Assembly (NCBI RefSeq): GCF_000007145.1
Contig: NC_003902.1
Span: 1,927,436 to 1,959,435, forward strand
Source of the DNA: Xanthomonas campestris pv. campestris str. ATCC 33913
Lineage (GTDB): Bacteria > Pseudomonadota > Gammaproteobacteria > Xanthomonadales > Xanthomonadaceae
DNA length: 32,000 nucleotides
Reading direction: 5' to 3'
Shown: piece by piece, positions 13,450-32,000 of the stretch
Position numbering within the stretch: the first letter of the stretch is position 1
Layout: each line of letters starts with the position of its first letter
Translations under genes and position numbers: made by a program
The notes under the pieces: model-generated
What the model was told of the DNA's origin: nothing
Seen by the model: the letters and a program-made list of their open reading frames with translations, nothing else
Database searches by the model: none

Positions 13450-13464
13450 CGGTCATGCCCAGCC

Positions 13465-16141: not shown

Positions 16142-16220
16142 ACGGGCCGCAACCTTTCGCACATCCGGACGCACTCAGGCATGTCGCACTACGTGCAGTC
16201 AGCGGTTACGCCCCCGGAAC

Positions 16221-16813: not shown

Positions 16814-17931
16814 CGCTCCCTGAAATTCCCTTTCTGGATTTGCGTGCCGTCAACGCGCGTTACGCGGATGCGCTCAAGGCCGCCGCTGCGCGGGTGATCG
16901 ATTCGGGCTGGTATGTGCTTGGCCAGGAGTTGGCGGCGTTCGAAGAGGAGTTCGCCAGCTACTGCGGCGTGCAGCAGGCGGTGGGGGTGGGGAACGGGCT
17001 GGACGCGTTGTCGCTGATCCTGCGCGCCTACCGCGAATTGGGCGTGTTGCGCGAGGGCGATGAGGTGATCGTGCCGGCCAATACGTTCATTGCGACGTTC
17101 CTGGCGATCAGCCACAACCATCTGGTGCTGGTGCCGGTGGAGCCGGATCCGCAGACCTTCAACGTGGACCCGTGCAGGGTGGAGCGCGCCATCGGGCCGC
17201 GCACACGCGCCATTCTGGCCGTGCATCTGTACGGACAGCTTGCCGACATGCCGGCACTGCAGACGTTGGCGCACCGCTATGGCTTGCTGCTCATCGAAGA
17301 CGCCGCGCAAGCGCATGGCGCAAGCCGCGACGGTGTGCGTGCGGGCGCGTTCGGCGATGCGGCGGCGTTCAGTTTTTTTCCCACCAAGAACCTTGGTGCG
17401 CTGGGCGACGGCGGTGCGGTAGTGACCTCCGACCCGCGCCTGGCCGAGCGCGTGCGCGCGCTGCGCAACTATGGCTCGGAGGTGAAATACCAGCATCTGT
17501 TCCAGGGGGTCAATTCGCGCCTGGATGAGCTGCAGGCGGCCTTCTTGCGGGTCAAGTTGGGCTATCTGGATGAGGAGGCTGCACAGCGCCGCGCAGTGGC
17601 CCAGCGTTACCTGCAAGAGATCGATCACCCCTGGATCACGTTGCCCCCGGTGGCGCATGCCGAGCAGCATGTCTGGCATCTGTTCGTGGTGCGTAGCCAG
17701 CGCCGCGATGCCTTGCAAAGCCATCTGCAGCACCTCGGTATCCAGACCCAGATCCATTACCCGGTGCCGCCGCATCTGCAGCCGGCCTATGCCATGCTGG
17801 GCGATACCTGCCTGCCGATCAGCGAGCAGCTGCATCGCGAAGTGCTGAGCCTGCCGATGAGCCCGGCGCTGGACGACGCGGCAGTCAGCCGCGTCATCAC
17901 CGCCTGCCAAGTGTTCGGTAGCGCACCGTGA
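16810..17931 (+). CDS. DegT/DnrJ/EryC1/StrS-family PLP-dependent sugar aminotransferase (FdtB/QdtB-like)
   Basis: '[13 protein letters not shown]', '[21 protein letters not shown]', '[12 protein letters not shown]', '[19 protein letters not shown]' (PLP Lys) and 'RNYGS'. Start ATG 16810. Confidence 0.9.
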
Positions 17932-19181
17932 ATCTGGTGCGCAGCAGCGCCTACACCGGCGTTGCGACGCTGGCCAAGCTGCTGGCGGCGCTGGTGGTGA
18001 TCAAGTTGGTGGCGGTGTTTGCCGGGCCGCAGGGAGTTGGCCGGCTGGGGCAGTTCCTGGCCCTGATGTCGGTGCTGGCGGTGCTGGCCGGTGGCGGCAT
18101 CAGTACCGGCATCGTCAAGTATGTGGCGCAGTACCGCAGCGATGCACTTGCACTGCAACGACTGTTGAGCGCAGCACTCGGCTACGCCTGTAGTGCGGCG
18201 TGCGTGATGGCAGTGCTGGCGCTGGTCTTCAGCGACGTGCTCGCCGAACGGTTGTTGGGCGATGCGCAGGCGCGTTGGCTGATCTGTGTGCTGGCGGTGG
18301 CGCAGATCGGCATCGCGCTGGTCAACTACATCCTGGCGATCATCAATGGCTTCATGGACGTACGCCGGCTCGCCATCGTGCAGGTGAGCGGGGCGGTGCT
18401 GAGTGTTGCCCTGGTCGCCTGGCTGGGCAGCGGGTGGCAGTTGCAAGGCGCCTTGCTGGCGTTGGTGCTGGGCCAGGTGCTGTGGTTGATCGCCGCCGTG
18501 CCGGCCTTGCTGCGCAGCCCGTATTTCCAGCGCGAGATGCTGCGCATGCGGCTGGATGCGCAGATGACCCGCCAGCTTGCGGCGTTTTCGGTGATGACCC
18601 TCACCGCCACGTTGGTGCCGCAGCTGGTGGGCATGCTGGTGCGCGATCATCTGGCGCTGCAGTTTGGCTGGCAGCAGGTTGGCTACTGGCAGGCGGTGAG
18701 CCGGGTCTCCGATGCCTACCTGTTGTTCTTTACCACCGCGATCAACGTCTATTACCTGCCCAAGCTGGCCTCGCTGCAGGACCGGCAGGCACTGCGCCGC
18801 GAGCTGCGGACCGCCTATCGTTACGTGATGCCCGCGGTGGTGGCGATGGCCGCGTGCGTCTACCTGTTGCGTGACTGGGTGACCTGGCTACTGTTCGATG
18901 CCCGCTTCGCCGCGGCCGCTCCGTTGTATGGCCCGCAGCTGCTCGGCGATGTGATCAAGATCGCCGCGTTCGTGCTGTCCTACGTGATGCTGGCCAAGGC
19001 GATGACGCGGCTGTTCGTGGTGTCCGAATGCGTGTTTGCCGCCAGCTATCTGGGGCTGGTGTACCTGTTCACTGCACAGTTCGGCCTGATCGGCGCCATG
19101 TATGCATTTGTCGTCAACTACGTGCTGTATCTGCTGTTCAACATCGTGGTGGTGCGCCGTTATCTGAGGACGACGGCATGA
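17928..19181 (+). CDS. wzx: Wzx-type flippase, WzxE (ECA lipid III flippase)-like
   Basis: A polytopic 417-aa protein. '[47 protein letters not shown]' and '[30 protein letters not shown]' parallel my recollection of E. coli WzxE. The GTG start overlaps the upstream stop. Confidence 0.8.
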
Positions 19182-20116
19182 GCCTGCTGGAACGCCCGAG
19201 CGGACGTGCGCGCTGGCCGCTGGTGTCGGTGCTGATTCCCGCGTTCAACCATGCGCGTTTTGTGCAGCGCTGTCTGGACAGCGTGCTGGAGGACCCGTAC
19301 CCGTCCAAGGAGATCGTCATCATCGATGATGGCTCCAGCGATGACACCGGCGAGCAGATCGCCGCATGGATCGCGCTGCACGGCCATCGCGTGCCGGTGC
19401 AGTTCGTCCAGCGCAGCAACCGCGGTGTGGCGGCCACGCTCAACGAGCTGGCATTGCGCGCGCGCGGGGAGTATCTGCGCATTTGTGCGAGTGACGACTA
19501 TCTTCTTCCTGGCGGACTGCACGTTCAGGTTGACTACCTGGTACGCCATAGGAATAAAGCGGCGGTCATCGGCGATGCGATCGTGATCGATGGTGATGGC
19601 GCGACCTTGCATGCAAGTGCGATGTCCGGACTCCATGGAGTGAGTCGCGGCCCTTACGCAAGCGATGACGGGATTCGCCGCGAGATCATTTGTAGGTGGG
19701 CCGTAAGCGGCGCCGTATTGCTGCTGCGCAGGAGTACGTTCGCGGCAGGTCTCCGGTGGAACGAAAGCCTTCGGATTGAGGATTGGGACTTTTATCTCAG
19801 GCTTGTATCGAAAGATCTGCTTGCGTTCATTGATGTTCCGGTGTGTGCGTATCGGCTCCATGGAGCGAATGCAAGCAAGACGCGTGATCCTGGAAAGAGG
19901 CTAAGCAACCTGACCGAATTCCTGGAGGTCGCTTCTGCGTCCCGTCATATTTTTGGTCGCAGGGACCAGCGATTCATACTCGCTCAATCCAGCTTGATCT
20001 CATCCAAAATACATTTCATCGAGAAGAGATACCTGCAGGCATCGGGATTTCTTGTGCTGTATCTGACGAGAAGTGTCTTGGCGAAAGCAGGGTGGGACAG
20101 GATGGTCAGCTCATAA
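19178..20116 (+). CDS. family 2 glycosyltransferase
   Basis: 'VSVLIPAFNHARFVQRCLDSVLEDPYPSKEIVIIDDGSSDDT' and 'LRICASDDYLLPG' (DxD-like). ATG 19178 overlaps the wzx stop. The 3' half is conspicuously lower in GC. Confidence 0.85.
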   Translation: MSLLERPSGRARWPLVSVLIPAFNHARFVQRCLDSVLEDPYPSKEIVIIDDGSSDDTGEQIAAWIALHGHRVPVQFVQRSNRGVAATLNELALRARGEYLRICASDDYLLPGGLHVQVDYLVRHRNKAAVIGDAIVIDGDGATLHASAMSGLHGVSRGPYASDDGIRREIICRWAVSGAVLLLRRSTFAAGLRWNESLRIEDWDFYLRLVSKDLLAFIDVPVCAYRLHGANASKTRDPGKRLSNLTEFLEVASASRHIFGRRDQRFILAQSSLISSKIHFIEKRYLQASGFLVLYLTRSVLAKAGWDRMVSS

Positions 20117-20117
20117 C

Positions 20118-21254
20118 ATGAAGGGCAATCTCATCAGATGGCCATCGATGTTTCTATGGCCGCCAATGCTGGCAAGTTGTGGCATCACCTATTGGATCTA
20201 CGAGCTGCCGTCCGGCTATCTCGCAGGATTGTGGATTCTGGGTTTTGCTGCCTCGTTGACTCTGTTGATGGACGCATTGCTCGGCACCCGCTTGCCAAGC
20301 GCGCAGCAGTTCCGCCTGCAGCGGTATGCCGGCACGCGCGAATCATTCCTGGTGATGGCGCTGGCCGCCGGGGTGGCGGTGTTCTGCCTGCTGGACGTGG
20401 CGTTGTTTCCGATTCCACTGTTCAGTGACCCGTCTTCGTATGCCACCTTGAGTCCGCTGCGGGCACATGTGCGGCACATCTCCAACATGTGCTGGATCCT
20501 GCCGCCGATTGCGCTGCTGTGCGTGCGCCACCGCGGGTTGCGCACCGCGATGGTACTGGTGGGGTTCGTATTTCCGATCGTGGTGATCGACCGCAATCGC
20601 ATCTTTGCCGGGCTGTTCTCGTTCGTGGTGGTGCTGTTGCTGCGCCGCGACCCGGCGCGGCAACTGCCCTGGAAGCGCATCGCCTTGCTGGTGATGGCGG
20701 GTGGCGCGGTGTTCTCGGTGCTCGGCGCGCTGCGTTCGGGTTCGCTGGCCACCGTGGCGCTGCCCTTCAGCGCGTTCTACCGCGCCATGCCGCAAGGCGT
20801 GCAATGGCTGCTGCTGTACATCAGCGCGGGCCCGTACAACTTCGGCGCGATCCTGGCCAAGGGCTACGTCAATGCCAGCTTTCTGATCAACCAGCTGATG
20901 CCGCTGGGCGGCTCCATCGCCACCGCCGACACCAGCATTCCGCTGGATGCGCCCAATATCAACGTGGGCACCGAGTTTTTCCCGTTCCTGATGGCCTGGG
21001 GCGCACCCGGCGCGGTGATCGCACTGCTGGCGCTGTATGCCGCCTTGCTGTGGAGCGTGCGCCGGCTCAATGCGTCGCTTTCGATCTTCCACGTGCTGAT
21101 CTTTTTGCGGATCGCCTACGCCTGCCTGATGTCGCCGTTCGCCCCGCAGGCATTCACCTGGACCAACTTCGCCTTCATCGGCCTGTGCCTGGGCTTGCAC
21201 GCCTGCACGCTGCTGTTGCCGAACCGTCGCGTCCTGCCGGTTGCCTCCGCGTAG
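20118..21254 (+). CDS. polytopic membrane protein, candidate Wzy-type repeat-unit polymerase
   Basis: 378 aa with about 10 hydrophobic helices and no catalytic motif I can name. The assignment rests on its position between GT2 and Wzz in a Wzx-containing locus. Confidence 0.45.
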   Translation: MKGNLIRWPSMFLWPPMLASCGITYWIYELPSGYLAGLWILGFAASLTLLMDALLGTRLPSAQQFRLQRYAGTRESFLVMALAAGVAVFCLLDVALFPIPLFSDPSSYATLSPLRAHVRHISNMCWILPPIALLCVRHRGLRTAMVLVGFVFPIVVIDRNRIFAGLFSFVVVLLLRRDPARQLPWKRIALLVMAGGAVFSVLGALRSGSLATVALPFSAFYRAMPQGVQWLLLYISAGPYNFGAILAKGYVNASFLINQLMPLGGSIATADTSIPLDAPNINVGTEFFPFLMAWGAPGAVIALLALYAALLWSVRRLNASLSIFHVLIFLRIAYACLMSPFAPQAFTWTNFAFIGLCLGLHACTLLLPNRRVLPVASA

Positions 21255-21291
21255 CCGCCCCCGTTTGTTTTCGATTGCCGAGCCAAGCCTG

Positions 21292-22146
21292 ATGAAAGAT
21301 GAAGACGAGATCTACCTGATCGACCTGTGGCGCATCCTGCTGCGCGAATGGCGCTGGGCGCTCGCCGCGATGCTGGTGGTGCTGGCAATCACATTCGCCT
21401 TTACCCGCGTGGCCAAGCCGCAGTGGGAGGCTACGGCCTGGATCCAGGTGGGCGAAATCGGGCCGACCCCGGCCGGCCGCGATCCCAAGGTGGAGCCGTT
21501 CCAGCGGGTGATCGACCGGATGAAGACGCGGCTGTTCCAAGACGCGGTGCTGACGCACGCTGGCGTGCCGCTGAAGAGCCGTGCCGCGCAGCTGTACCGC
21601 GGCAGTCTCAAGCCCGATCCGGACCCGTATGCCAACCTGATCGGCATCACCATCCGCGCCGAATCCGCAACACAGGCACGCACGCTCGCAATGGCCACCG
21701 TCGCGCAGTTGCAGGCATTGCATGGCCAGACCAACACCGCGGCGTTGGCGCTCGCGAAGACGCGCCTGCGCGGCCTGGACGAGGACCTGCGCGTGGCGAC
21801 GGCCAGCCGCGCGCAGCTGCAGCAGCAGTTGGGCAGCCCGCAAGCCAATGACCAGGCCACGCCTGCGCAGGTGCTGGCCGGCGTCCTGCTCACCGACAGC
21901 AACACCACCATCCGCGCCTTGAAGGCCGAGCGCGACGATCTGGTCGCACGGCTCACCGAGCGCTACACCTACCAGACCTCGCTGGCGTGGCCGTTGTATG
22001 TGCCGGACCACCAGGCGTTCCCGAACGCGATCATGGCCTGGGCCGCCGGCATTCTCGGTGGTGGTGCGCTTGGCGTACTGGCCGCGGTGTTGCGAAATGC
22101 CGTGCGCGGTCGCGGACGCGGGCAGGCACCGCACGCGACGGTGTGA
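21292..22146 (+). CDS. wzz: Wzz-type polysaccharide chain-length determinant (PCP-1 architecture)
   Basis: 'DEIYLIDLWRILLREWRWALAAMLVVLAITFAF' is the N-terminal Wzz motif plus TM1. A helical middle of about 200 aa follows ('LRGLDEDLRVATASRAQLQQQL'), then a C-terminal TM 'IMAWAAGILGGGALGVLAAVL'. Confidence 0.75.
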   Translation: MKDEDEIYLIDLWRILLREWRWALAAMLVVLAITFAFTRVAKPQWEATAWIQVGEIGPTPAGRDPKVEPFQRVIDRMKTRLFQDAVLTHAGVPLKSRAAQLYRGSLKPDPDPYANLIGITIRAESATQARTLAMATVAQLQALHGQTNTAALALAKTRLRGLDEDLRVATASRAQLQQQLGSPQANDQATPAQVLAGVLLTDSNTTIRALKAERDDLVARLTERYTYQTSLAWPLYVPDHQAFPNAIMAWAAGILGGGALGVLAAVLRNAVRGRGRGQAPHATV

Positions 22147-22307
22147 GTGCTGCGACGCGCATTCGTTCCACCCGGATTGGGCGCACGCAGTGCCGCAACC
22201 AAAGTGGCGGCAGCCGGCACTCACTGTTCAATCAAGCGATGCCGCGAGTGCGGCGCCGCGTCTGGAGAGTGTCGTGACAACAGCAGGACCGGTGGGAGAG
22301 CGCGCGC

Positions 22308-23153
22308 ATGTCGGCAACCAATGAGCCACTGGCGCGGCGTGGCCGCGGTGTGGATGCGTCGCAGTTGCTGGAAACCCAGCGTGCCTTCGACAGCGTGGCT
22401 GCCGACTACGATGGGCCGCGCGGCAACAACGCGCTGATCCAGCGCATGCGCACCACGCTATGGGACACCGTGGCCACCGAACTGCCGGTCGGTTCGCGGC
22501 TGGTGGACCTGGGCTGCGGCACCGGGCTGGATGCAGGCGAGTTCGCCAGCCGTGGTTACAGCGTGCTGGCCACCGACTGGTCGCCGGCCATGGTGGCGCG
22601 CACCCGTGAGCGTGCTGCCCGACAAGGCCTTGAGGAGCGCCTCACTGCCGCGCATGTCGGCATCCAGCAGCTGGAGCGGCTGGAAGGCGAGTTCGATGGC
22701 ATGTATTCCAACTTCGGCCCGCTCAACTGCGCGCCGGACCTGCCGGCCGTCGCTGCCGAGTGCGCACGCCTGCTGCGCCCGGATGGCTGCCTGGTGTTTT
22801 CGGTGATCGGGCGGATCTGCCCGTGGGAAGTCGGCCACTACGCAGTGCGCGGCCGCTTCAAGCGCGCGGCGGTGCGTGCGGCGCAGGGTGCGACCGCGGT
22901 GGGCATGAACGGCCACACCATCTGGACCTGGTATCACCTGCCGCGCGAGTTCTACCGGGCTTTCAGCCAGCACTTCGTGCTCGATCGCTACCAGGCGTTG
23001 AGTCTGTTCCTGCCGCCGCCGTATCTGGTGGACTTCTATGAGCGCCATCCGCGCCTGTCCGCGCGCCTGGGGCAGTTGGACGACCGCATGGGCGGCTGGC
23101 CGTTGCTGCGCGACATGGGCGATCACTTCCTGATCGTGATGCGCAAGCGCTGA
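22308..23153 (+). CDS. class I SAM-dependent methyltransferase
   Basis: Motif I 'RLVDLGCGTGLDAGEFASRGYSVLATDWSPAMV' and post-I/II 'FDGMYSNFGPLNC'. GGGAGAG lies 7 nt upstream of the ATG. Confidence 0.85.
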   Translation: MSATNEPLARRGRGVDASQLLETQRAFDSVAADYDGPRGNNALIQRMRTTLWDTVATELPVGSRLVDLGCGTGLDAGEFASRGYSVLATDWSPAMVARTRERAARQGLEERLTAAHVGIQQLERLEGEFDGMYSNFGPLNCAPDLPAVAAECARLLRPDGCLVFSVIGRICPWEVGHYAVRGRFKRAAVRAAQGATAVGMNGHTIWTWYHLPREFYRAFSQHFVLDRYQALSLFLPPPYLVDFYERHPRLSARLGQLDDRMGGWPLLRDMGDHFLIVMRKR

Positions 23154-23165
23154 GTGGAGACCGCG

Positions 23166-24380
23166 ATGGCCATGGCCGATGTGTGCCTGTACGGCGCGCG
23201 CGCGATCACCCTGGCCGGGCCATCGCGCGCGCCGGTGACGCTGCGTGCCGGCCACTTCGGTGGCACGCTGGGCACCGGCACGCTGCGGCTGGATCTGCAG
23301 GGGCATGTGCTGGCGCCGGGCCTGATCAACGCGCATGAGCATCTGCAGATCAATGCCGTGCCGCCGCTGCCGCAGAGCGCACCGTTCGCCAACAGCTATG
23401 CGTGGATCGATGCCTTTCAGGCGCATTTTCAGCGTCGCGAGGTGGCCGTTGCGCTGCAAGTGCCCAAGGACGTACGCCTGCGCCAGGGTGGTCTGAAGAA
23501 TCTGCTCGCGGGGGTTACCTGCGTGGCCCAGCACGATCCCTGGCACGCCGCACTGGATACGGCCGATTTCCCGGTGGCGGTCCTGCGTGCATTCGGCTGG
23601 AGCTATGCGTTGGGCGGGCCAGCTTATGGGCCGCCGGTGCAGGAGAGTTTCGCCGCGACCCCGTCCGGGCAGCCCTGGATGATCCATCTGGCCGAAGGCA
23701 CCGACGCGGTTGCACGCGCGGAGCTGGACGCCTTGGACCGTCTCGGTTGCCTGGCCGGCAACAGCGTGCTGATCCATGGTGTGGGGCTGGGCGAGCAGGA
23801 TATCGACCGCATCATCGCCTGCGGTGCGGCCGTGGTGTGGTGCCCGTCGAGCAATCTGGCGCTGCTCGGCCAGACGCTGGACCCCTGGCGTCTGTGCATG
23901 GCCGGGCGGCTGGCGCTGGGTAGCGATGCGCGCGTCAGCGGCGGGCGCGACCTGCTCGACGATCTGCGCCTGGCCACCGACAGCGGGTTGGCCCCGGACC
24001 TGCTGCTGGGCCTGGCCACGCATCAAGCGGCGCGCATCCTGCGCCTGCCCGCGCGCGGCAGCCTGGCACCGGGCGCGGTGGCCGACCTGGTGATCGTGCG
24101 CGACCGCGGCGGTGAGCCTGCGGCGAGTGTGGTGGGTTGCAGCCGCAGCCAATTGCGCGCGGTGATCCGCGATGGCAAACCGCGGATTGCCGACCCCGAT
24201 TTCGCCCACTGGTTCGACGCAGCCGGCATCGCAACCTTGCCGGTGTTGCTGGATGGCTGCCCCAAATTGCTGGACGCCGCGTTGGCCGATCCACAGGTGC
24301 TGGCACTTGAACCCGGCGTGCAGCTGCTGTCGCCGCACACGCATGCCGCAACGCGCGTGGCATTTGGAGCGGCGCAATGA
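23166..24380 (+). CDS. metal-dependent amidohydrolase-superfamily protein
   Basis: 'LAPGLINAHEHLQIN' (HxH), 'WMIHLAEG', 'VLIHGVGL', 'VVWCPSSN' and 'LALGSDARVSG'. ATG 23166 has GGAG upstream. The alternative start GTG 23154 directly abuts the upstream stop. Confidence 0.8.
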   Translation: MAMADVCLYGARAITLAGPSRAPVTLRAGHFGGTLGTGTLRLDLQGHVLAPGLINAHEHLQINAVPPLPQSAPFANSYAWIDAFQAHFQRREVAVALQVPKDVRLRQGGLKNLLAGVTCVAQHDPWHAALDTADFPVAVLRAFGWSYALGGPAYGPPVQESFAATPSGQPWMIHLAEGTDAVARAELDALDRLGCLAGNSVLIHGVGLGEQDIDRIIACGAAVVWCPSSNLALLGQTLDPWRLCMAGRLALGSDARVSGGRDLLDDLRLATDSGLAPDLLLGLATHQAARILRLPARGSLAPGAVADLVIVRDRGGEPAASVVGCSRSQLRAVIRDGKPRIADPDFAHWFDAAGIATLPVLLDGCPKLLDAALADPQVLALEPGVQLLSPHTHAATRVAFGAAQ

Positions 24381-25087
24381 ACAGTGCAATGAGCAGTGTG
24401 CCCACGCTGGAGCCGGCCGCAGCGTATGCGCTGTGGGCGCAGGCGTATCCGCCGCACGCGCACAACCCGGTGATGCTCGCCGAGCAGCGCGCCATGCTGG
24501 CGCTGTTGCCCACCGACCTGCGCAGCCAGCATGTGCTCGATGCCGGCTGTGGCAGCGGGCGCTACATGCTGCAGGCGCTGCAACGCGGCGCTGCGCAGGT
24601 CACTGGCGTAGACCTCTCGCCGGAAATGCTGCAACGCGCCGCGCACGAACTGGCGCAACGCTGGCCCGCCACGTGCTTCTCCCTGCAGCAGGGCAGCCTG
24701 GAACAGTTGCCGGTTGCCGATGCCATGGCCGACATCACCGTGTGCGGCCTGGTGGTCGGGCATCTGCCACGGCTGTGGACGGCGCTGGAGCAACTGCGGC
24801 GCGTCACCCGCATCGGCGGCAGCGTGCTGTGCAGCGACGTGCATCCGATCGGTCATGCGCTGGGCTGGCGACGCGACTTCAAGGCCGACGGCCAGCACTA
24901 CGCCATCCGCCATACCCAACATCTCTACAGCCATTGGCATTCGGCATGCGCGGCGCTGGATCTGGCGATCGAGGCGGTGGCCGAGCCGATGCTCGATCCT
25001 GCCGACATCCCGCCCGGCGCGCGCTTCGACACCGCCGCGCTGCAAGTGCCGGTGGCGCTGGTGCTACGCCTGCGACGGCTCGCGTGA
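24377..25087 (+). CDS. class I SAM-dependent methyltransferase
   Basis: 'HVLDAGCGSGRYMLQALQRGAAQVTGVDLSPEML' and 'DITVCGLVVGHL'. An ATGA overlap links it to the amidohydrolase stop. Confidence 0.85.
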   Translation: MNSAMSSVPTLEPAAAYALWAQAYPPHAHNPVMLAEQRAMLALLPTDLRSQHVLDAGCGSGRYMLQALQRGAAQVTGVDLSPEMLQRAAHELAQRWPATCFSLQQGSLEQLPVADAMADITVCGLVVGHLPRLWTALEQLRRVTRIGGSVLCSDVHPIGHALGWRRDFKADGQHYAIRHTQHLYSHWHSACAALDLAIEAVAEPMLDPADIPPGARFDTAALQVPVALVLRLRRLA

Positions 25088-25092
25088 GCGGC

Positions 25093-25209
25093 ATGGTGAG
25101 CGATGTGCAGGCGGCGGTTTGGCGCCACGCCGTGCAACGGATCGCGCAGAACGCGGGCAGTCGTGCCCACATCGCGCGCGCCGCACGTTCCCTGCGCTCC
25201 GGGGACTGA
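25093..25209 (+). CDS. unannotated 38-codon small ORF (41 codons if started at GTG 25084)
   Basis: 'MVSDVQAAVWRHAVQRIAQNAGSRAHIARAARSLRSGD'. It fills the otherwise empty 124-bp gap. GTG 25084 would overlap the upstream stop as GTGA, and the stop at 25207-25209 is 2 nt before the GT4 start. 31 of 38 codons end in G/C. It shows no homology I can recognise. Confidence 0.3.
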   Translation: MVSDVQAAVWRHAVQRIAQNAGSRAHIARAARSLRSGD

Positions 25210-25211
25210 CG

Positions 25212-26336
25212 GTGCACGTGGCCCATCTCAATCTGCTGCCCGCGCCAAGCGGCTGGGACGCCGTGCAGGTATTCGCGCAGTGGCCATCGCTGGCCGACAT
25301 TGCCGAAGCAGTCGCCAGCACCGGCACCCAGGTGACGGTACTGCAGGTGGCTGCGCACACCGAGCAGCTGACACGGCAGGGCGTGGCGTATCACTTTCTC
25401 GACCCTGGCAAACGCGGCAGCGCCGTACGTGCGCGGCGGCTGGCTGATCTGTTGCAACAGCTCGACGTTGCGGTGATCCATGTACATGGGCTGGAATTTG
25501 CCGGCGATGCACGGCGCCTCGCACGGTTGTTGCCGCAGGTGCCGATCGTGCTGCAGGACCATGCCAATCGGCCGCCGCGCTGGTGGCGCAGGCCGGTGTG
25601 GCGCGCGCGCTACGCGGCGGCGGCCGGCATCGCGTTCACCTCGCTGGCGCTGGCGCAGCCCTTCGTCCGTGCCAGGCTGTTTGGGCCGCGCACGCAGCTG
25701 TTTGCGATCCCCGAATCGAGCAGCCGCTTCACGCCGGGCGACCGCATCCAGGCGCGCGCGGTCACCGGCCTGGCCGGCGACCCATGCGTGCTGTGGGTTG
25801 GCCATTTGAGCGAGGGCAAGGACCCGCTGTGCGTGCTGGATGCCGTGGCCATGGCGGCAGCGCGCTTGCCTGGCCTGCGGCTGTGGTGCGCCTTCCATGA
25901 GGCGCCGCTGCTGGAGGCGGTGCGCCAGCGCATCCACGACGACCCACGGCTTGCATCACGCGTGCACTTGCTGGGCAAGGTCACGCATGCGCAGATTCAG
26001 CAGCTGCAGCGGGCGGCGGATGTGTTCGTCTCCGCAAGTCATGCGGAAAGTTGCGGCTATGCCGCGCTGGAAGCCTATGCCTGCGGAACGCTGCCGCTGC
26101 TGAGCGACATTCCCGCCTTCCGCGCGCTCAGCGACAACGCGTCCATGGGCGCGCTGTTTCCGGTGGGGGATGCCGCGCGCCTGTCCGATCTTCTGGTGGC
26201 GCACGCACGCCAGCGCCCCGGCCGGGCGCGGGTGCGTGCGTATTTTGATGCGCGGTTGTCGTTTGCCGCAGTGGGCCGGCAATGGCGCGACGCCTACACA
26301 CAGGTGCTGCGCACGGCAGCGGGGCAACGGCAATGA
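25212..26336 (+). CDS. GT4-family (GT-B fold) glycosyltransferase
   Basis: 'VHVAHLNLL' N-terminus and the C-terminal EX7E-type block 'ADVFVSASHAESCGYAALEAYACGTLPLLSDIPAF'. The start is GTG 25212, with GGGGA 6 nt upstream. The N-terminal 166 aa of the track ORF (from 24714) overlap the methyltransferase off-frame. Confidence 0.85.
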   Translation: MHVAHLNLLPAPSGWDAVQVFAQWPSLADIAEAVASTGTQVTVLQVAAHTEQLTRQGVAYHFLDPGKRGSAVRARRLADLLQQLDVAVIHVHGLEFAGDARRLARLLPQVPIVLQDHANRPPRWWRRPVWRARYAAAAGIAFTSLALAQPFVRARLFGPRTQLFAIPESSSRFTPGDRIQARAVTGLAGDPCVLWVGHLSEGKDPLCVLDAVAMAAARLPGLRLWCAFHEAPLLEAVRQRIHDDPRLASRVHLLGKVTHAQIQQLQRAADVFVSASHAESCGYAALEAYACGTLPLLSDIPAFRALSDNASMGALFPVGDAARLSDLLVAHARQRPGRARVRAYFDARLSFAAVGRQWRDAYTQVLRTAAGQRQ

Positions 26337-27445
26337 AACTGGCGGTAGTGGTGCCCGGTGGCGTGGATCGCAGCGGCGAAGTGCGCGTGATTCCGGTGTT
26401 TCTGACCTTGATCGACTGGTTGGCACGCAACCACGAGGTGCATGTGTTCGTGCTGCACCAGGAGCCGGAACCGGCGACCTGGATGCTGCGCGGCGCCACC
26501 GTGCACAACATCGGCCAACACCGCACCCGCCTGCGTGCCATCGCCGCGATCCGCGAGGAGCATCGGCGCGCGCCATTCGACGTGGTGCAGGCCCTGTTTT
26601 CAGGCTATTGCAGCTTGATCGCGGTGGTGGCGGCCAAGCTGCTGCGGCGGCCCAGCGTGGTGCATATCGCCGGCGGCGAGTTGGTGGCGCTGCACGGCAT
26701 CGGCTACGGCGGCCGCCGGCGTTGGCGCGGGCGCCTGCGCGAGGCGGTGATCCTGCGCCTGGCAGACCGTGTCACCGCGGCCAGCCTGCCCATCATTGCT
26801 TCGTTGCATGCGCTGGGCGTGACGGCGCAGCGTGTGCCGCTGGGCGTGGACCTGCGCGCGTGGCCACCGGCGCCGCCGCGGGCACGCAGCGGCGGTGTGG
26901 CGCGGCTGCTGCACGTGGCCAGCCTCAACCCGGTCAAGGATCAGACCACCTTGCTGCGCGCCCTGGCTGCCCTCAAGCGTGCCGGTGTGGCGTTCGTGGT
27001 GGACATCGTCGGTGTGGACACGCTCGACGGCAGGATCCACGCATTGGCCGAACAGCTGGATCTCGGCGCGCAGGTGCGCTTTGTGGGCTTCAAGACACAG
27101 CGCGAATTGCGCCCGATCATGCAGTCCGCCGATCTGCTGCTGATGTCCTCGCTGCACGAAGCCGGGCCGATGGTGTTACTGGAGGCCGCGCTGGTGGGCG
27201 TGCCCACGGTGGGTACGGCGGTGGGCCATCTGGCCGAGTGGGCGCCGAGCGCCGCACTGGCGGTACCACCGGGCGATTGGGCCGGCCTGGCCGAAGCGAT
27301 CCGCCAGGTGCTGGCCGACGACGAACTGCGCCTGCGGCTTGCCTGGGCCGCGCAATGCCGCGCCACCCGCGAAGATGCCGGGCTGACCACCCGGCTGTTC
27401 GAAACACTGTACCGCGAACTCTGCGCGGAGCGACCGTTGCGCTGA
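26333..27445 (+). CDS. GT4-family (GT-B fold) glycosyltransferase
   Basis: 'MKLAVVVPGG' and 'ADLLLMSSLHEAGPMVLLEAALVGVPTVGTAVGHL'. An ATGA overlap links it to the preceding GT4. Confidence 0.85.
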   Translation: MKLAVVVPGGVDRSGEVRVIPVFLTLIDWLARNHEVHVFVLHQEPEPATWMLRGATVHNIGQHRTRLRAIAAIREEHRRAPFDVVQALFSGYCSLIAVVAAKLLRRPSVVHIAGGELVALHGIGYGGRRRWRGRLREAVILRLADRVTAASLPIIASLHALGVTAQRVPLGVDLRAWPPAPPRARSGGVARLLHVASLNPVKDQTTLLRALAALKRAGVAFVVDIVGVDTLDGRIHALAEQLDLGAQVRFVGFKTQRELRPIMQSADLLLMSSLHEAGPMVLLEAALVGVPTVGTAVGHLAEWAPSAALAVPPGDWAGLAEAIRQVLADDELRLRLAWAAQCRATREDAGLTTRLFETLYRELCAERPLR

Positions 27446-27449: not shown

Positions 27450-27477
27450 CTGCAGGTTGGCCTCAGGCCGGCTGCAG
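27450..27477. terminator. imperfect hairpin at a convergent gene junction
   Basis: CTGCAG(GTT)GGCC-TCA-GGCC(GG)CTGCAG. The outer 6-bp and inner 4-bp stems are separated by a small internal loop. The 3-nt hairpin loop is the minus-strand stop codon (27463-27465). Confidence 0.3.
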
Positions 27478-28704
27478 ATACCCATCCAGCGCCGCGCGCA
27501 CCACGTATAGCATGTCGGTGCGTGGCACCGGCCGGGTGAGGCGCGTCATCAGTCGCCGCGTCTGTGACTGGCGCACCCATGGCTGGTCTTGCAGCCACAG
27601 CTGCGTGCGCAGCATGTCGGCGCGCTCCTTGCGGCTCTCTGCCGACGGCGCGATGCGCTGGCGCAGGTACTGGCGTGCCTCGCCCAGCGAACGTGACCAT
27701 TCGATGCCGGGCAACGCCGGCAGCCACAGGTTGGAGCAGGACGCGGTCGTCAAGGTCAGGCGCGCGGCGCGCATCCGCAACAGTGGCGCACACTGCGCAC
27801 GCAGGCGTGCGAGCACCGCGGCCGGCACCACATCGCCGTAGTAGCGCTGCAGCAACAGCAGCGGCGGCAACGCCCACCACGGCGGCGCAGCGCTGTCTTC
27901 CCACAGCACCTCCCAATCGCGCGGGCCCATGCGTGTGACCAGCAGTGCCAGGTCGTGCAGGTGCATCAGGCGGATGCTGCGGTGGCAGATACCGCCGGCG
28001 GCGTGCAGCAGCAAATGGCACATCAACGCGCCAATCGACGGATAGGCGTTCAGACCGGGCTGCGGACGCTCCGGCAGTACACGCGCGGTGATGTCCACAC
28101 ACGCCACCGGCAAGCGTTCCTGGATGCGCGTGTGCAGCTCGATGCTGATCGGTGCATCGCGGTGCTCGCCCAGCCCGGCCACGGCCTCGCCGTGCACCGG
28201 CTTGAACACCTGGTGCTTCCATTGGTCGAACGAGGCCACATAGCCCAGCGCACACAGCAGCTCGGCCGCACGCGGCGCGTCCTCAGCCTCTACCAATAGA
28301 TCGATGTCGGCCATGGGCCGGTCGCCGGGCAGATACACGCCCAGCCGATGCAGGGCAGTGCCCTTGAGTCCAGTCACTGCAATGCCGGCGCTTCTTGCGG
28401 CGGCATCGATCTGGGTCAACAGCAAGGCGATGCGGCGATGGCGATGCGCCACGTGCGCACGCTGCTCATCGAGGAAGCGTGTCCATTCGGCTGTCTGCCA
28501 CAGCGATTGGCGTTGCAGCAGCGGCGAAACGCCATGTGCGGCGGCGGCAGCGGCTGCCAGCTGCCATTGCAGGCGATCCCAGCGTGGCGGCGCGTCGCTG
28601 GGCTGCGCAAGCTCCCGGGCGAGCCGTTCGGTGGCCGTGCGCAGGCCGTGTTTGATCGTGCGAAGCGAAGGCTGCATCGAGGCAATCCGGAAAAGAGGTA
28701 ACAA
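27463..28704 (-). CDS. uncharacterised nucleotidyltransferase-family protein (PF14907 / NTP_transf_5-like)
   Basis: 'IAVTGLKGTALHRLGVYLPGDRPMADIDLLVEAEDAPRAAELLCALGY' and 'ISIELHTRI' match the pattern of this family. The track start is TTG 28704, with ATG 28677 as an alternative. Confidence 0.7.
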   Translation of the reverse strand: MLPLFRIASMQPSLRTIKHGLRTATERLARELAQPSDAPPRWDRLQWQLAAAAAAAHGVSPLLQRQSLWQTAEWTRFLDEQRAHVAHRHRRIALLLTQIDAAARSAGIAVTGLKGTALHRLGVYLPGDRPMADIDLLVEAEDAPRAAELLCALGYVASFDQWKHQVFKPVHGEAVAGLGEHRDAPISIELHTRIQERLPVACVDITARVLPERPQPGLNAYPSIGALMCHLLLHAAGGICHRSIRLMHLHDLALLVTRMGPRDWEVLWEDSAAPPWWALPPLLLLQRYYGDVVPAAVLARLRAQCAPLLRMRAARLTLTTASCSNLWLPALPGIEWSRSLGEARQYLRQRIAPSAESRKERADMLRTQLWLQDQPWVRQSQTRRLMTRLTRPVPRTDMLYVVRAALDGYLQPA

Positions 28705-28729
28705 CGGTGGTGCAGGGCCGTGGCGCGTT

Positions 28730-30217
28730 TCAGCCGACCAGCACGCTGGCCAGCTGGCGCACTGGTCGCGCCGCCGCCATCAACGGTTCGGTGCGATGTG
28801 CGTGCTCGGAGGCGATCAAGCTGTCCCAGCGCTGCTCCAGCGCTTGCCACGCCTGCGCATACGCCAGATCGCCCATCGTGGTGCGCGCCTGCTGCAGGTC
28901 CACTTCGGTGTGCAGCAGGTTGCGCACGCTGCGGTAGAACTCCGAGTCGTAGGCACCGCGGAACATCATTGCCAGGTCGTCGCTGTCCTGCCAATGCGTC
29001 TTGCCACCCAGCTGGTTTTTCACTTCCTCGTAGAACTTGGTGCCGGGCAGCGGATACGACACGCTGACACCGATGAGATCCGGTGCGGCCTCGCGCACCA
29101 AGGCGCGGGTGGCCAGGATGTCGACGAGTTCTTCGCCCAGATAGCCCAGCTGGATGAAGAAGCCCACGCGGATCCCGCGCGCACCCAGGCGGCGGCGTGC
29201 GGCGATGACATCGGCCACCTGCGTGCCCTTGGTCATCTTGTCTAGGATGCGCTGGCTCCCGCTTTCCGCGCCCAGCCACGCCTCGGCGCAACCGGCACGC
29301 GCCAGGGCGGTAGCCATGCGGTCGCTGGCAAGATCGGCGCGCGTCTGGATCATGAAGGGGATCGCACCATCGGCATCGCTGAGCTGCTCGGCGAAGGTTT
29401 CCACCCAGTCGATATGGAAGCCGAAGATGTCATCGGCCATCCAGATGTGATCGGGCCCAAATGTGCGCTTGAGGTGGATCATCTCTGCGGCCACGTCTTC
29501 TGCGCTGCGGCGCTTGTAGTGGTTGCCCCAGATCGGCTTGGCGCACCAGTTGCAGCGGAACGGGCAGCCGCGCGAGGCGGCCATGTTGAGGCTGAAATAG
29601 CCGTGGCGTTGTTGCCAGAAGGTGCGATAGCGCGGGATGTCCACCAGATCCCACGCGGGCAATCCGCCCAGCCGCGCATCCGGCGGCTGCGCGCCCACGT
29701 GTTCGCGAGCGGCGGCAGGATGCGCGGTGGCGATGCGTGCCACGCCGTCCAGCCAGGTGTCGGGTGCGCATTGCGGGTTCGCGTCCAACCGCGCCACCAG
29801 TTCCAGCAACGGCGCGATACCTTCGTCGATCAACACTGCATCGGCACCGGCGGCCAGAAACACATCCGGGTTGTCGGAGGCATCGGAGCCGGCCACCAGC
29901 ACGCGGCAGCCCTGCGCGCGCGCGGTGGCGATCATCGTGCAGGCCGCCTCGCGCATGCGGCTCAGGCACATCTTGGTGAGGAAGTTGAAGTTGTCTTCGT
30001 AGAACACCACCAGGTCCGGCTGCGCCGCCTGCAGCGCGCCGGGGTAGTCCTGCACGTCGTCGGCAAGCATGGCATCGAACAGGCTCAAACGATGGCCGTG
30101 TTCGCGCAGCAAGGCGGCCACCTGCAACGTGGCAAGCGGCGGATAGGGCTTGCCGCGTTCCCATTGTTTGGGGTCGTAACGCAGGAAGTACGAATGGCTG
30201 ACCTGGATCTTTAGCAT
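28730..30217 (-). CDS. B12-binding-domain radical SAM enzyme (class B)
   Basis: An N-terminal Rossmann-like B12-binding segment ('PPLATLQVAALLREHGHRLSLFD..PDLVVFYED..RVLVAGSDASDNP') is followed by 'ASRGCPFRCNWCAKP' (CX3CX2C) and 'AWLGAESGSQRILDKMTKG'. The start is ATG 30217 ('MLKIQVSH'). The remaining 300 aa of the 795-aa track ORF are not supported. Confidence 0.85.
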   Translation of the reverse strand: MLKIQVSHSYFLRYDPKQWERGKPYPPLATLQVAALLREHGHRLSLFDAMLADDVQDYPGALQAAQPDLVVFYEDNFNFLTKMCLSRMREAACTMIATARAQGCRVLVAGSDASDNPDVFLAAGADAVLIDEGIAPLLELVARLDANPQCAPDTWLDGVARIATAHPAAAREHVGAQPPDARLGGLPAWDLVDIPRYRTFWQQRHGYFSLNMAASRGCPFRCNWCAKPIWGNHYKRRSAEDVAAEMIHLKRTFGPDHIWMADDIFGFHIDWVETFAEQLSDADGAIPFMIQTRADLASDRMATALARAGCAEAWLGAESGSQRILDKMTKGTQVADVIAARRRLGARGIRVGFFIQLGYLGEELVDILATRALVREAAPDLIGVSVSYPLPGTKFYEEVKNQLGGKTHWQDSDDLAMMFRGAYDSEFYRSVRNLLHTEVDLQQARTTMGDLAYAQAWQALEQRWDSLIASEHAHRTEPLMAAARPVRQLASVLVG

Positions 30218-30436
30218 CTGCGCAAGGTTCTCGTTCTGTCGCCAGGTGGGCGCAGCAGCGGCGCGCGCAAGACACCGGCATTCGGCTCGGCAGTAGGTGC
30301 GCATGCAAGCCACTTTGGTTGTGCCGATGCACGAGCCGTGCGCTGCGCGCCGTTCATGCGCGCGGCGGGCAATGCACGCAACCTTTCGGCGGCCGAGCCG
30401 CACACACCGGCTGAACTTGTGCACGGATGAAACGGC

Positions 30437-31525
30437 ATGCCGCAATCGGCCGCAGTGGCGGAATTGGCGCCAATCAGCGCGTTGCGGGCGGAGCGCGCGC
30501 ACGCTGCAATGCCGGCCCCGCTGGATCCGTTTGACGAGCAAGGGCCACGCCGGCATGGCGTGCGCAAGCAGGTACTTGGCGCGTCGTTCCACTTCGAAAG
30601 CGACAGCCCGGCGCTGCTTTCGCTGGTTGAGGCCGCGTACGCCGGGCTGCCTGCGCATCGCTTCGATGGCGCCCCGCAGTTCCATATCACCCTGGATGTG
30701 GTGGCGCGTGCGCCGCGGCTGCCGGTGGCCGAGCCGCCGCCGGTTCGCACGCATGCCGCTGCCGGTCTGCTGTGCGGGGTGATGGACGAATGCAACTACC
30801 TGATGGTGTCGGTCGCCGAGCGGCGCGCCATGGTGGTGGTGTCGGACGACATGCTGATGCATGCCTATCACCTGCGCTACGAGTTGATCGAATTCGCGGT
30901 GTTCCTGTTGGCAGCGCGTGGCATGTCGCTGGTGCCGCTGCACGGCGCCTGCGTTGGCTGGCAGGGACATGGTGCGCTCTTGCTCGGGGCCAGTGGCGCC
31001 GGCAAGTCGACCCTGGCCTTGCACAGCCTGTTGCGTGGGCTGCAGTTCGTGGCAGAAGACGGTGTCTTTGTGGAGCCGCACAGCCTGGTCGCAACCGGTG
31101 TAGCCAATTTCCTGCACCTGCGGCCGGCATCACTGGGCCTGCTGGACGCACCCACCCGCGCCTGGATCAGTGCGGCCCCCACCATCCGGCGGCGCAGCGG
31201 GGTGGAAAAGTTCGAGGTCGATCTGCGCGATAGCCGCGCGGTGCTCGCGCCGGCCCCGCTGCCGTTGGCGGCGGTGGTGTTGCTGAGCGATGTGCCGGCC
31301 ACCGATCCGGCCCACCTGCTGACGCCAATGGCGCACGAGGAGATCGCTGCATGCCTGGCGGCGGATCAGCCATATGCAGCTGGCCAGCCCGGCTGGTCGC
31401 ATTTCATCGCGCAGGTGCAGCAGCGTGGCGTATACCGCATGCAACGCGGCGCGCATCCGGATGCCGCAGTGGATGCGCTGCTGCAGCTGCTGCACCGCGC
31501 CGCATCCTCACTGCCGGGCGCGTGA
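30437..31525 (+). CDS. HPr kinase/phosphorylase C-terminal-domain-like (HprK-related) putative serine kinase
   Basis: 'MSLVPLHGACVGWQGHGALLLGASGAGKSTLALHSLLRGLQFVAEDGVFV' has the P-loop and surrounding strands of the HprK C-domain. The N-terminal 150 aa or so have no motif I recognise. ATG 30509 is an alternative start. Confidence 0.7.
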   Translation: MPQSAAVAELAPISALRAERAHAAMPAPLDPFDEQGPRRHGVRKQVLGASFHFESDSPALLSLVEAAYAGLPAHRFDGAPQFHITLDVVARAPRLPVAEPPPVRTHAAAGLLCGVMDECNYLMVSVAERRAMVVVSDDMLMHAYHLRYELIEFAVFLLAARGMSLVPLHGACVGWQGHGALLLGASGAGKSTLALHSLLRGLQFVAEDGVFVEPHSLVATGVANFLHLRPASLGLLDAPTRAWISAAPTIRRRSGVEKFEVDLRDSRAVLAPAPLPLAAVVLLSDVPATDPAHLLTPMAHEEIAACLAADQPYAAGQPGWSHFIAQVQQRGVYRMQRGAHPDAAVDALLQLLHRAASSLPGA

Positions 31526-31549
31526 GCGCATGGCGCACGACGTGAACCC

Positions 31550-32000
31550 ATGACGAGCGCTGAAATGGACGCCGCCACATCGCGTGCATCGGTCCGCGTG
31601 GTGGTGCGCAACTTTGCCGCCACGCTGGTGCGTGCCGATCGCAGCCGCATTGCGCTCTACGTGCTGCTGTCGCTCGCCGCCGCTTTGGCGGGCAGCGCGG
31701 TGGCCGTGTGCCTGGTGCCGCTGGTGCAGCCCGGCCAGGGCCTGCGCGTGGCCGGGCAGGTACTGGTCCTGCCCGGCGGCCTGCCATTGCAGGCAAGCCT
31801 GTTCGTCCTGGTGAGCCTGCTGTTTGCCGTGTTGCGCTGGCAGAGCGCGCGGTTGGCGGCCCGCTTGACCAGCCGCTATGCCATTGGCCTGCGCCAGCGC
31901 GTGCATGCCTCCTTGCTCGAGGCGCCATTGCCGGCCTTGGCCGATGCCAGCTCGGCGGAAATCGCCAACGTGCTGACCTACAACATCGAGATCGCCACGC
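31550..32000 (+). CDS. 5' part of a fused ABC exporter: ABC_membrane transmembrane domain, truncated by the window edge
   Basis: I translated this by hand because it is absent from the track (there is no stop before the window end). 'MTSAEMDAATSRASVRVVVRNFAATLVRADRSRIALYVLLSLAAALAGSAVAVCLVPLVQ...LFVLVSLLFAVLRW...LRQRVHASLLEAPLPALADASSAEIANVLTYNIEIAT' shows the TM1/TM2 and 'xGEixxxLxxDxxxi'-type pattern of type I exporters. It starts 24 nt after the kinase stop. Confidence 0.65.
   Translation, partial: MTSAEMDAATSRASVRVVVRNFAATLVRADRSRIALYVLLSLAAALAGSAVAVCLVPLVQPGQGLRVAGQVLVLPGGLPLQASLFVLVSLLFAVLRWQSARLAARLTSRYAIGLRQRVHASLLEAPLPALADASSAEIANVLTYNIEIAT

Follow-up and report, generated by a model that had tools for sequence, protein, structure and literature searches.

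The DNA examined here, called the window throughout, is a stretch of 32,000 nucleotides of Xanthomonas campestris pv. campestris str. ATCC 33913 (contig NC_003902.1, positions 1,927,436 to 1,959,435 of the forward strand), and coordinates are numbered from its first letter. Its distal end carries a module of four genes arranged as two divergent pairs, encoding (i) a protein of the NTP_transf_5 family (PF14907), (ii) a radical S-adenosylmethionine (SAM) enzyme with a putative N-terminal B12-binding-like domain (class B architecture), (iii) an HprK-like P-loop kinase, and (iv) an ATP-binding cassette (ABC) exporter that runs past the end of the window (Table 1). An initial annotation, made from the sequence alone, had described these genes and their domains, together with a 219-bp spacer from which the two pairs diverge. 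Their placement and the domains were confirmed, and the spacer was measured at 30218-30436. The kinase protein is encoded identically in many X. campestris genomes and, because a search of plasmids for the module returned no match, the module is considered chromosomal.

Table 1. Features of the four-gene module and of the surrounding locus (XC_ tags are those of strain 8004).
Feature	Position	Strand	Remarks
NTP_transf_5 (PF14907) protein	27463-28704	-	Pfam; XC_2550 by gene order
Radical SAM enzyme, N-terminal B12-binding-like domain (class B architecture)	28730-30217	-	XC_2549 by gene order
HprK-like P-loop kinase, two domains, PF27840 'ScmC'-like family	30437-31525	+	XC_2548 by gene order
ABC exporter, N-terminal membrane domain	31550 (or 31565)-32000, past window end	+	XC_2547 by gene order
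Motif ACAACC-N16-GCACCTAC	30293-30322	-	Weaker copy, faces radical SAM/NTP_transf_5 operon; alignment and scans
Motif GCAACC-N16-GCACACAC	30378-30407	+	Faces kinase/ABC operon; ends 30 nt before ATG
Motif, perfect copy	22195-22224	+	Upstream of MT1, methyltransferase/GT4 operon
Motif	16149-16178	+	Before FdtA, Wzx/Wzy/Wzz sugar operon
Motif, weaker copy	16023-16052	-	Before cytochrome b561 operon
Motif	12402-12431	-	26 nt before ECF sigma factor gene
SAM methyltransferase (MT1)	22308-23153	+	Pfam, NCBIfam; first gene of methyltransferase/GT4 operon
Amidohydrolase	23154-24380	+	Pfam, NCBIfam
SAM methyltransferase (second)	24377-25087	+	Pfam, NCBIfam
GT4 (first)	25212-26336	+	Pfam, NCBIfam
GT4 (second)	26333-27445	+	Pfam, NCBIfam
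FdtA	16221-16643	+	Operon 16149-22146
Acetyltransferase remnant ORF (57 aa)	16640-16813	+	Between FdtA and DegT
DegT aminotransferase	16789-17931	+	
Wzx flippase	17928-19181	+	41.7 bits, above gathering
GT2	19178-20116	+	
Wzy-like membrane protein	20118-21254	+	Wzy candidate without family match
Wzz	21292-22146	+	38.3 bits, above gathering
Cytochrome b561	15297-15890	-	Operon spanning 12439-16052
Secreted 448-aa protein, no family match	In 12439-16052 operon	-	
Cytochrome c	13465-13860	-	12439-16052 operon
255-aa putative porin, weakly TorF-like	In 12439-16052 operon	-	
ECF sigma factor	11795-12376	-	rpoE4/XC_2566 by mapping
zf-HC2 anti-sigma factor	11145-11798	-	Downstream of ECF gene; XC_2567 by mapping
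Secreted S8 peptidase	9832-11148	-	

The NTP_transf_5 protein scored 97.5 bits on PF14907 for a gathering score of 31.2, a clear match that bears out its earlier assignment. According to an alignment of orthologues, its likely start is the ATG at 28677 (404 aa) and not the TTG at 28704. The G[ST] ... DxD nucleotidyltransferase motif is present, and residues G106, D124, D126 and E180, as well as the segments LKG-x-AL and RPMADIDLLV, were invariant across 18 orthologues, including relatives at 30-48% identity. Sequence and profile searches found no relative in the PDB, and a single-sequence structure model had a predicted local distance difference test (pLDDT) of only 41. The radical SAM enzyme showed the CPFRCNWC cluster motif (CX3CX2C), which the initial annotation had pointed out, within a core scoring 51.7 bits (gathering 29.5). 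Its N-terminal B12-binding match reached 26.1 bits, under the gathering score of 32.1, and the Rhodanobacter and Luteibacter orthologues carry precomputed PF02310 matches that are significant. All its scores on NCBIfam models were far below the cut-offs, the best being rSAM_ladder_B12, HpnJ, PhpK and AprD4, and the nearest PDB entry was AprD4 (6fd2, E 1e-15).

The kinase reached 31.4 bits (E 1.7e-7) on Hpr_kinase_C (PF07475), narrowly under the gathering score of 33.3 and aligned only around the P-loop. H169, the P-loop G184-S-G-x-G-K-S-T192 and the pair E207-D208 were invariant in 18 sequences. When an AlphaFold model built on 18 homologues (pLDDT 80) was compared by Foldseek, its two domains together aligned with phosphoenolpyruvate (PEP) carboxykinase (E 6e-9), and its catalytic domain aligned with that of HprK/P (E 1e-5). 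According to this model, the kinase is a two-domain protein of PEP carboxykinase-like fold in which the HprK catalytic core is intact, so that its description as HprK-related holds at the level of both fold and motif. The exporter, of which the window contains the membrane part, is complete in genomes encoding the identical kinase. There it is a 566-aa protein of type IV (ABCB-like) layout, with a six-helix membrane domain fused to the ABC ATPase (ABC_tran 66.7 bits; ABC_membrane 27.3 bits, gathering 28). Its best full-length PDB alignments were with BmrA and MsbA, and its PDB matches (ABCB1, BmrA, MsbA) are generic and do not separate a peptide from a lipid or glycan cargo.

Conservation of the module was assessed by scanning for the kinase in one genome per species. 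This yielded 80 loci, all from Xanthomonadales, in Xanthomonas, Pseudoxanthomonas, Luteibacter, Dyella, Rhodanobacter, Fulvimonas and metagenome-assembled genomes (MAGs), with kinase identities of 55-71%. Where the sequence around the kinase sufficed, tblastn searches with the window proteins recovered the radical SAM gene in 78 of 78 loci, the NTP_transf_5 gene in 75 of 76 and the ABC gene in 71 of 73, and the gene orientation of the module was constant across these loci. Such a four-gene neighbourhood is far beyond chance, and these counts contradict the possibility, named in the initial annotation as speaking against its proposal, that the genes are not conserved as neighbours. The module is not autonomous. 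The set of methyltransferase, amidohydrolase, methyltransferase and two family 4 glycosyltransferases (GT4), which had been seen merely as converging on it, is co-conserved with it, GT4b being found by synteny in 65 and GT4a in 64 of 68 kinase loci. In the other genera the locus is larger. An extra B12-radical SAM gene separates the second methyltransferase gene from the first GT4 gene in 36 loci, a flavin-reductase-like gene and further methyltransferases occur in 23 loci, and 20 loci have an acyltransferase_3 together with a redoxin of the AhpC/TSA type. These additions have been lost from the main Xanthomonas clade, which retains a reduced locus (compare window 25088-25211 with L088 3261-4802 and L087 3379-7043). 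The genes missing in this clade occur in Rhodanobacter, Dyella and Luteibacter.

An exhaustive search retrieved full-length relatives of the kinase (E < 1e-30) in about 131 clusters at 50% identity. Five distant loci, with kinases at 33-45% identity, were listed together with their gene contexts. An NTP_transf_5 gene was present in four of the five, along with 1-4 B12-radical SAM genes, 2-4 SAM methyltransferases, glycosyltransferases of the GT4, GT2 or GT87 families and a fused ABC exporter, besides Acyl_transf_3 (with or without SGNH), PIG-L or Polysacc_deac_1, and sulfotransferase genes. PqqD, Asn_synthase, lasso peptidase or other machinery for peptides made on ribosomes and modified after translation (RiPPs) was absent from all five. 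Judged by their gene content, these are sets for glycan building and decoration, and a carbohydrate or glycolipid substrate is preferred mainly because the distant loci are of this type and free of RiPP genes.

In X. campestris the module lies within a locus of about 24 genes, from 9.8 kb in the window to about 33.3 kb. Next to the methyltransferase/GT4 operon, an operon beginning with FdtA carries Wzx, Wzz and Wzy-like genes, and its FdtA and DegT proteins are predicted to direct the synthesis of a 3-amino-3,6-dideoxyhexose. It is followed by an operon for cytochromes b561 and c and by the genes for an extracytoplasmic function (ECF) sigma factor, its anti-sigma factor and an S8 peptidase, the sigma gene being 18 kb away from the module. 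A supercluster of the same order occurs in Rhodanobacter sp. L36, with S8 peptidase, anti-sigma factor, ECF sigma factor, putative porin, cytochrome c, a 458-aa protein and cytochrome b561 on one side. On the divergent side come FdtA ... DegT, Wzx ... GT4, GT4 ... NTP_transf_5 and radical SAM enzyme, with kinase ... ABC exporter divergent from the latter. The FdtA...Wzz set adjoins the ECF genes in Rhodanobacter too, and S8 peptidase orthologues lie on kinase-bearing contigs in many genomes. One gammaproteobacterial MAG carries, directly next to the radical SAM gene and in the usual place of NTP_transf_5, an S8 peptidase gene (L084 6704-8008, - strand) whose product shares 60% identity with that of the window.

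Alignment of the module spacer from 11 genomes revealed four invariant blocks, corresponding to two divergent copies of the motif GCAACC-N16-GCACyyAC. With at most one mismatch, four copies were found in the window (30378, 22195, 16149 and 12402) against 0.05 expected. The strict motif occurred 201 times in 1.55 Mb of related sequence (the 80 loci) against 0-4 times in shuffles, and nearly all strict copies lay upstream of the radical SAM, kinase, MT1 or ABC genes. Where an insertion splits the ABC gene from the kinase gene, the former has its own copy upstream. The copy upstream of MT1 is kept in Luteibacter, Dyella and MAG loci, and in Rhodanobacter the motif is found before the ECF gene and the cytochrome operon as well, the cytochrome operon and its motif being the same there (L099). 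In the window the motif precedes six operons of the locus, the ECF sigma gene's own among them, with the zf-HC2 anti-sigma gene adjacent. Autoregulated ECF promoters usually show themselves by a motif ahead of the gene for the sigma factor, and the motif here probably defines the regulon of this sigma factor, which corresponds to rpoE4 by the mapping given below. Neither the consensus nor the content of this regulon was found described in the literature searched.

Two inverted pairs in the spacer, GTGAGTGC/GCACTCAC and GGTTGC/GCAACC, had suggested a structured RNA or riboswitch, which was rejected. The pairs are read as two divergent promoter-like copies because their intervening segments lack covariation, the distance between half-sites varies from ~10 to ~100 nt, and single half-sites occur before other operons. 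In addition, an Rfam search of the spacer returned nothing at E <= 1. Scans of 27-32 kb for sigma-70 promoters and terminators were uninformative, with a single promoter-like site that falls within a gene and no terminator. The AhpC/TSA-type redoxin gene of the 20 Rhodanobacteraceae loci stands between or just after the kinase and ABC genes (L087 11330-11941; L089 13164-13778), and in the loci with redoxin a separate copy of the motif lies before the ABC gene. Together with the cytochrome b561 and c genes, the redoxin hints at a redox connection.

Published expression data were then linked to the locus. Strain 8004 possesses ten ECF sigma factors, among which XC_2566 (rpoE4) is restricted to Xanthomonas; this gene was named and deleted, and no function was assigned to it (Yang et al., 2018, PMC6085468). 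The tables of the same study list XC_2547 as an "ABC transporter ATP-binding protein" and XC_2546 as an "MFS transporter" (major facilitator superfamily). The gene count from the ECF gene to the ABC gene fits this numbering and provides the tags of Table 1. In RNA-seq data comparing cauliflower hydathodes at 72 h post-inoculation (hpi) with culture, every listed gene from XC_2546 to XC_2566 was induced, with log2 fold changes of 2.8-7.4, i.e., 7- to 170-fold (Luneau et al., bioRxiv 10.1101/2021.01.19.427230, Tables S4 and S5). These values were 5.35 for XC_2547, 6.02 for XC_2548, 5.55 for XC_2549 and 4.65 for XC_2550, i.e., the genes of the module, and 5.14, 7.41 and 4.91 for XC_2555, XC_2561 and XC_2566, respectively. 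Several genes were up already at 4 hpi, XC_2566 was also up in a constitutive hrpG mutant, and the authors comment on the sigma factor only (bioRxiv 10.1101/2021.01.19.427230). The genes that map to the cytochrome/porin operon (XC_2562-2565) were all induced in planta, and the co-induced block reaches from XC_2546 to XC_2569. The convergent MFS sugar transporter downstream of the module (L004 12909-14315, - strand; XC_2546 by mapping) was co-induced in hydathodes and, unlike the module, belongs to the constitutive-HrpG regulon (log2 fold change 3.4). No functional studies of the module were found by locus tag (XC_2547-2561, XCC1681-1683).

The module was then compared with known systems, beginning with the tailoring of lasso peptides such as paeninodin and pseudomycoidin (PsmK/PsmN). 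Both share an HprK-like P-loop kinase, a nucleotidyltransferase-fold gene and a fused ABC exporter. The nucleotidyltransferase of the lasso clusters is presumably a PF14907 protein, as stated in the initial annotation. The review consulted names no family for it (PMC8498205). Sulfotransferase genes accompany both kinds of cluster, on the present side in the distant kinase loci. Lasso tailoring is also the sole biochemical precedent for the order in which a hydroxyl is phosphorylated and a glycosyl group is then placed on the phosphate. However, the present kinase resembles known families only around the P-loop, and its partners are glycosyltransferases, methyltransferases and a B12-type radical SAM enzyme. 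The called genes were screened for the machinery of lasso biosynthesis in six X. campestris genomes, over the stretch that begins at Wzz and extends 10 kb beyond the ABC gene, and likewise in the remaining loci whose genes were listed. An Asn_synthase-like cyclase was found neither in the window and the 10 kb downstream nor in any other listed locus, and the same holds in every listed locus for the PqqD/RiPP recognition element (RRE) protein (B1) and the transglutaminase-like leader peptidase (B2).

In agreement with the earlier reading of the window, neither the window nor the sequence downstream yielded a convincing precursor. Between 22.1 kb and the point where the ABC gene ends the locus is tightly packed, its biggest gaps being of ~160, 125 and 219 bp. 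Small open reading frames (ORFs) of at least 12 aa in the spacers of ~80 loci, once clustered, consisted just of out-of-frame shadows of the radical SAM and kinase N-termini and of motif translations, and a precursor within the spacer was rejected. The 57-aa ORF of the FdtA operon (Table 1), which begins with MSMRKPLVIIGAGEFAQIA, was likewise rejected as a precursor, since it is the N-terminal remnant of a hexapeptide acetyltransferase; the intact gene lies between FdtA and DegT in Rhodanobacter (L099 3936-4601). It is probably the unannotated plant-induced coding sequence between XC_2560 and XC_2561 of the RNA-seq tables.

Beyond the ABC gene lie the convergent MFS transporter, a luciferase-like oxidoreductase, a PNPOx-like protein, ExoD, a CNNM protein and phosphate transport genes. 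They occupy the place where the initial annotation had suggested, as one option, a peptide gene beyond the window, and where a lasso B/C/precursor set would have made the module a known class. The proposal of a non-lasso modification-and-export unit therefore stands, none of the findings that its authors had named as contrary, i.e., a kinase or nucleotidyltransferase of another family, unconserved neighbours or a downstream lasso set, having been obtained. Because none of the four defining features of the lasso system tested (precursor, PqqD/B1, B2 peptidase, Asn-synthetase-like cyclase) was found, the module is not a member of it, although in its working the closest counterpart is the pair of kinase and nucleotidyltransferase in Firmicute lasso clusters. 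Its substrate is probably not a peptide.

The comparison with the proteobacterial HPr-rel-A neighbourhood, also made in the initial annotation, did not hold. An HprK-related kinase beside a nucleotidyltransferase-family protein is common to both, but the kinase scored 27.5 bits on TIGR04352 and 40.6 bits on TIGR04355 (cut-off 200 each, only the P-loop region being aligned), and the TIGR04353 PqqD-family partner was absent from all loci examined, so that the module is not a member. With the glycan ABC flippases and exporters (PglK, Wzk, MsbA, NdvA), the module shares a fused half-transporter encoded within a glycan locus; it has no specific similarity to any one of them, and the locus also has Wzx. 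The radical SAM enzyme shares with the class B enzymes acting on sugars or lipids (GenK/GenD1, Fom3, HpnJ/HpnR, AprD4) a CX3CX2C core, preceded by a putative N-terminal B12-binding-like domain. Its gene lies among glycosyltransferases and SAM methyltransferases, and it is below the threshold of every curated subfamily. To our knowledge, no class B radical SAM enzyme has been shown to modify a cell-surface polysaccharide. Finally, as in ECF sigma/anti-sigma envelope regulons, the sigma gene stands behind its own target-like motif, is co-transcribed with a zf-HC2 anti-sigma gene and heads a set of envelope functions, here cytochromes b561 and c, a Wzx/Wzy glycan and the kinase/NTP_transf_5/radical SAM/ABC module. 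The module is thus most aptly classed as an unusual set for tailoring and export within a glycan locus under ECF control, with a combination of enzymes that is biochemically unprecedented.

From these comparisons, we consider it likely, with a probability of roughly 60%, that the four genes are two divergent operons forming the tailoring and export arm of an ECF-controlled, plant-induced envelope-glycoconjugate locus. This reading builds on the gene content, the co-conservation, the motif before every operon and the published co-induction in planta. It favours the second option of the initial annotation, a phospho-linked glycan or lipid substituent, which we infer from the same evidence. In this scheme, the GT4 and GT2 enzymes would build, on the cytoplasmic face of the membrane, a glycan or glycolipid containing the 3-amino-3,6-dideoxyhexose supplied by FdtA and DegT. 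The SAM methyltransferases and the B12-type radical SAM enzyme would methylate this glycan, the latter acting at an unactivated carbon by methylation or rearrangement. The HprK-like kinase would use ATP to phosphorylate a hydroxyl of the nascent glycoconjugate, and the NTP_transf_5 enzyme may place a glycosyl or nucleotidyl group on that phosphate, by analogy with the phospho-serine of pseudomycoidin (PMC8498205). The same review provides the precedent for chemistry in which a kinase is followed by a nucleotidyltransferase, the transfer of a glycosyl or nucleotidyl group to phosphate coming from in vivo work on pseudomycoidin only (PMC8498205). The cargo that the ABC exporter would carry across the inner membrane, in the manner of PglK, Wzk or MsbA, would be the product or else a lipid-linked donor, and the ECF sigma factor of the same locus would switch the locus on as Xanthomonas enters the plant.

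Several points weigh against this reading. The product and the enzyme activities of the module are predicted from genes. No initiating phosphoglycosyl transferase of the WbaP or WecA type was seen in the locus between 9.8 and 32 kb of the window, and the presence of a Wzx flippase leaves a second, ABC-type exporter unexplained. The "amidohydrolase" resembles nucleobase and 5'-deoxyadenosine deaminases as much as deacylases. The radical SAM enzyme fits no characterised subfamily, its best score being 89.8 bits for a cut-off of 360, and its reaction could be a methylation, a dehydration as with AprD4 or a ring rearrangement as with HpnJ. Besides, the function of the motif as an ECF promoter is suggested by position and autoregulatory placement only, and the mapping to XC_ tags follows gene order, three annotations and approximate coordinates, not sequence.

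A more specific form of the envelope-glycoconjugate reading is tentative and rather unlikely. In this form, the kinase and the PF14907 enzyme would cap a cell-surface glycan or glycolipid through a phosphodiester, the B12-type radical SAM enzyme would C-methylate the same glycan, and the whole would be switched on by the ECF sigma factor upon plant entry. If true, the kinase/PF14907 pair would gain its first non-peptide substrate, and class B radical SAM enzymes their first envelope polysaccharide as a target, and a decoration acquired at plant entry might alter recognition or resist host oxidants.

Among the alternatives, a soluble secreted natural product fares best, while still being unlikely. 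The GT4 enzymes would build a glycoside or pseudo-oligosaccharide, to which the SAM and B12-radical SAM enzymes would add methyl groups. Phosphorylation or nucleotidylation would yield a pro-form or serve self-protection, and the ABC protein would export the product independently of Wzx/Wzy. The GT4 proteins show partial matches to MshA- and BshA-type enzymes, which glycosylate small acceptors, the closest solved relative of the radical SAM enzyme, AprD4, belongs to apramycin biosynthesis, and a fused ABCB-type exporter is typical for metabolite export. Moreover, in the most distant locus (L091) the kinase and NTP_transf_5 genes flank a sugar-type ABC importer with two GT4 genes and a methyltransferase, and Wzx, Wzy and Wzz are absent. 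However, the genes are chromosomal and syntenic at 55-85% identity across the order, as is more typical of envelope functions than of specialised metabolites. In Xanthomonas, Luteibacter and Rhodanobacter they are also contiguous with the Wzz, Wzx and Wzy-like genes and share their motif, and the distant loci carry Acyl_transf_3-SGNH and GT87 proteins, which are enzymes of extracytoplasmic glycans.

Modification of a RiPP-like peptide, as in decorated lasso peptides or the SynChlorMet cassette, with a precursor encoded elsewhere, too small or too divergent, appears very improbable. HprK-like kinases and PF14907 enzymes have so far been characterised on peptides only, and the kinase weakly matches ScmC (PF27840; TIGR04249, 15 bits). 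B12-radical SAM C-methyltransferases are known from RiPP pathways, with weak rSAM_ocin_1 and ApyD matches here, and the locus includes an S8 peptidase, whose gene is the immediate neighbour of the radical SAM gene in the MAG mentioned above. Nevertheless, the listed loci contain no PqqD/RRE protein, cyclase or RiPP-type leader peptidase, and there is neither a conserved small ORF nor intergenic room for one, the 57-aa ORF being an acetyltransferase remnant. The always-present partners are glycosyltransferases and methyltransferases. By our reading of the model, the N-domain of the kinase has a predicted beta-beta-alpha-beta-beta-beta-beta-alpha order, unlike the three-strand three-helix fold of the RRE, and a signalling role is suggested for the S8 peptidase by its co-transcription with the genes for the sigma and anti-sigma factors.

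It seems equally doubtful that the kinase and the nucleotidyltransferase are regulators that phosphorylate and nucleotidylate a protein of the pathway (such as Wzz, a glycosyltransferase or the anti-sigma factor) to control its output, as HprK/P or the tyrosine kinases of polysaccharide co-polymerases do. In favour of this, HprK/P, which alone among the close fold relatives is defined biochemically, acts on serine in a protein, regulatory kinases are frequent in polysaccharide loci, and Pol-beta-type nucleotidyltransferases include protein adenylyl- and uridylyl-transferases. However, no HPr-like gene lies nearby, the kinase-exporter and NTP_transf_5-radical SAM pairs are translationally linked in the way typical of pathway enzymes, the pair persists in distant loci devoid of Wzz and of the ECF system, and the best two-domain structural matches of the modelled kinase are to PEP carboxykinase, a small-molecule kinase.

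At the other end of the window, the gene for a KaiC-like double ATPase (920-2524, + strand) runs into the beginning of the next one, which encodes a PAS hybrid histidine kinase that has a receiver domain (2481-4583). This pair lies upstream of the ccmCDEFGHI cytochrome c maturation genes (4621-9823).

The locus overturns no principle, but it is conserved, induced during infection and open to direct tests. What is understood of PF14907 enzymes, and of HprK-like kinases that do not regulate HPr, comes from a few lasso peptides only. In the present locus this pair is a fixed part of a glycan setting throughout an entire order, which includes major plant pathogens (Xanthomonas) and common soil genera (Rhodanobacter, Dyella, Luteibacter), and unrelated Proteobacteria have it as well. 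Inside hydathodes, the X. campestris locus is one of the strongly induced blocks. It also offers testable handles, namely rpoE4, the anti-sigma factor, whose deletion should activate the locus in culture, a defined motif, and four genes whose loss should remove specific decorations. If the proposed chemistry is true, both enzyme families would be extended to carbohydrate substrates, and the locus would provide a plant-induced surface modification relevant to immune recognition.

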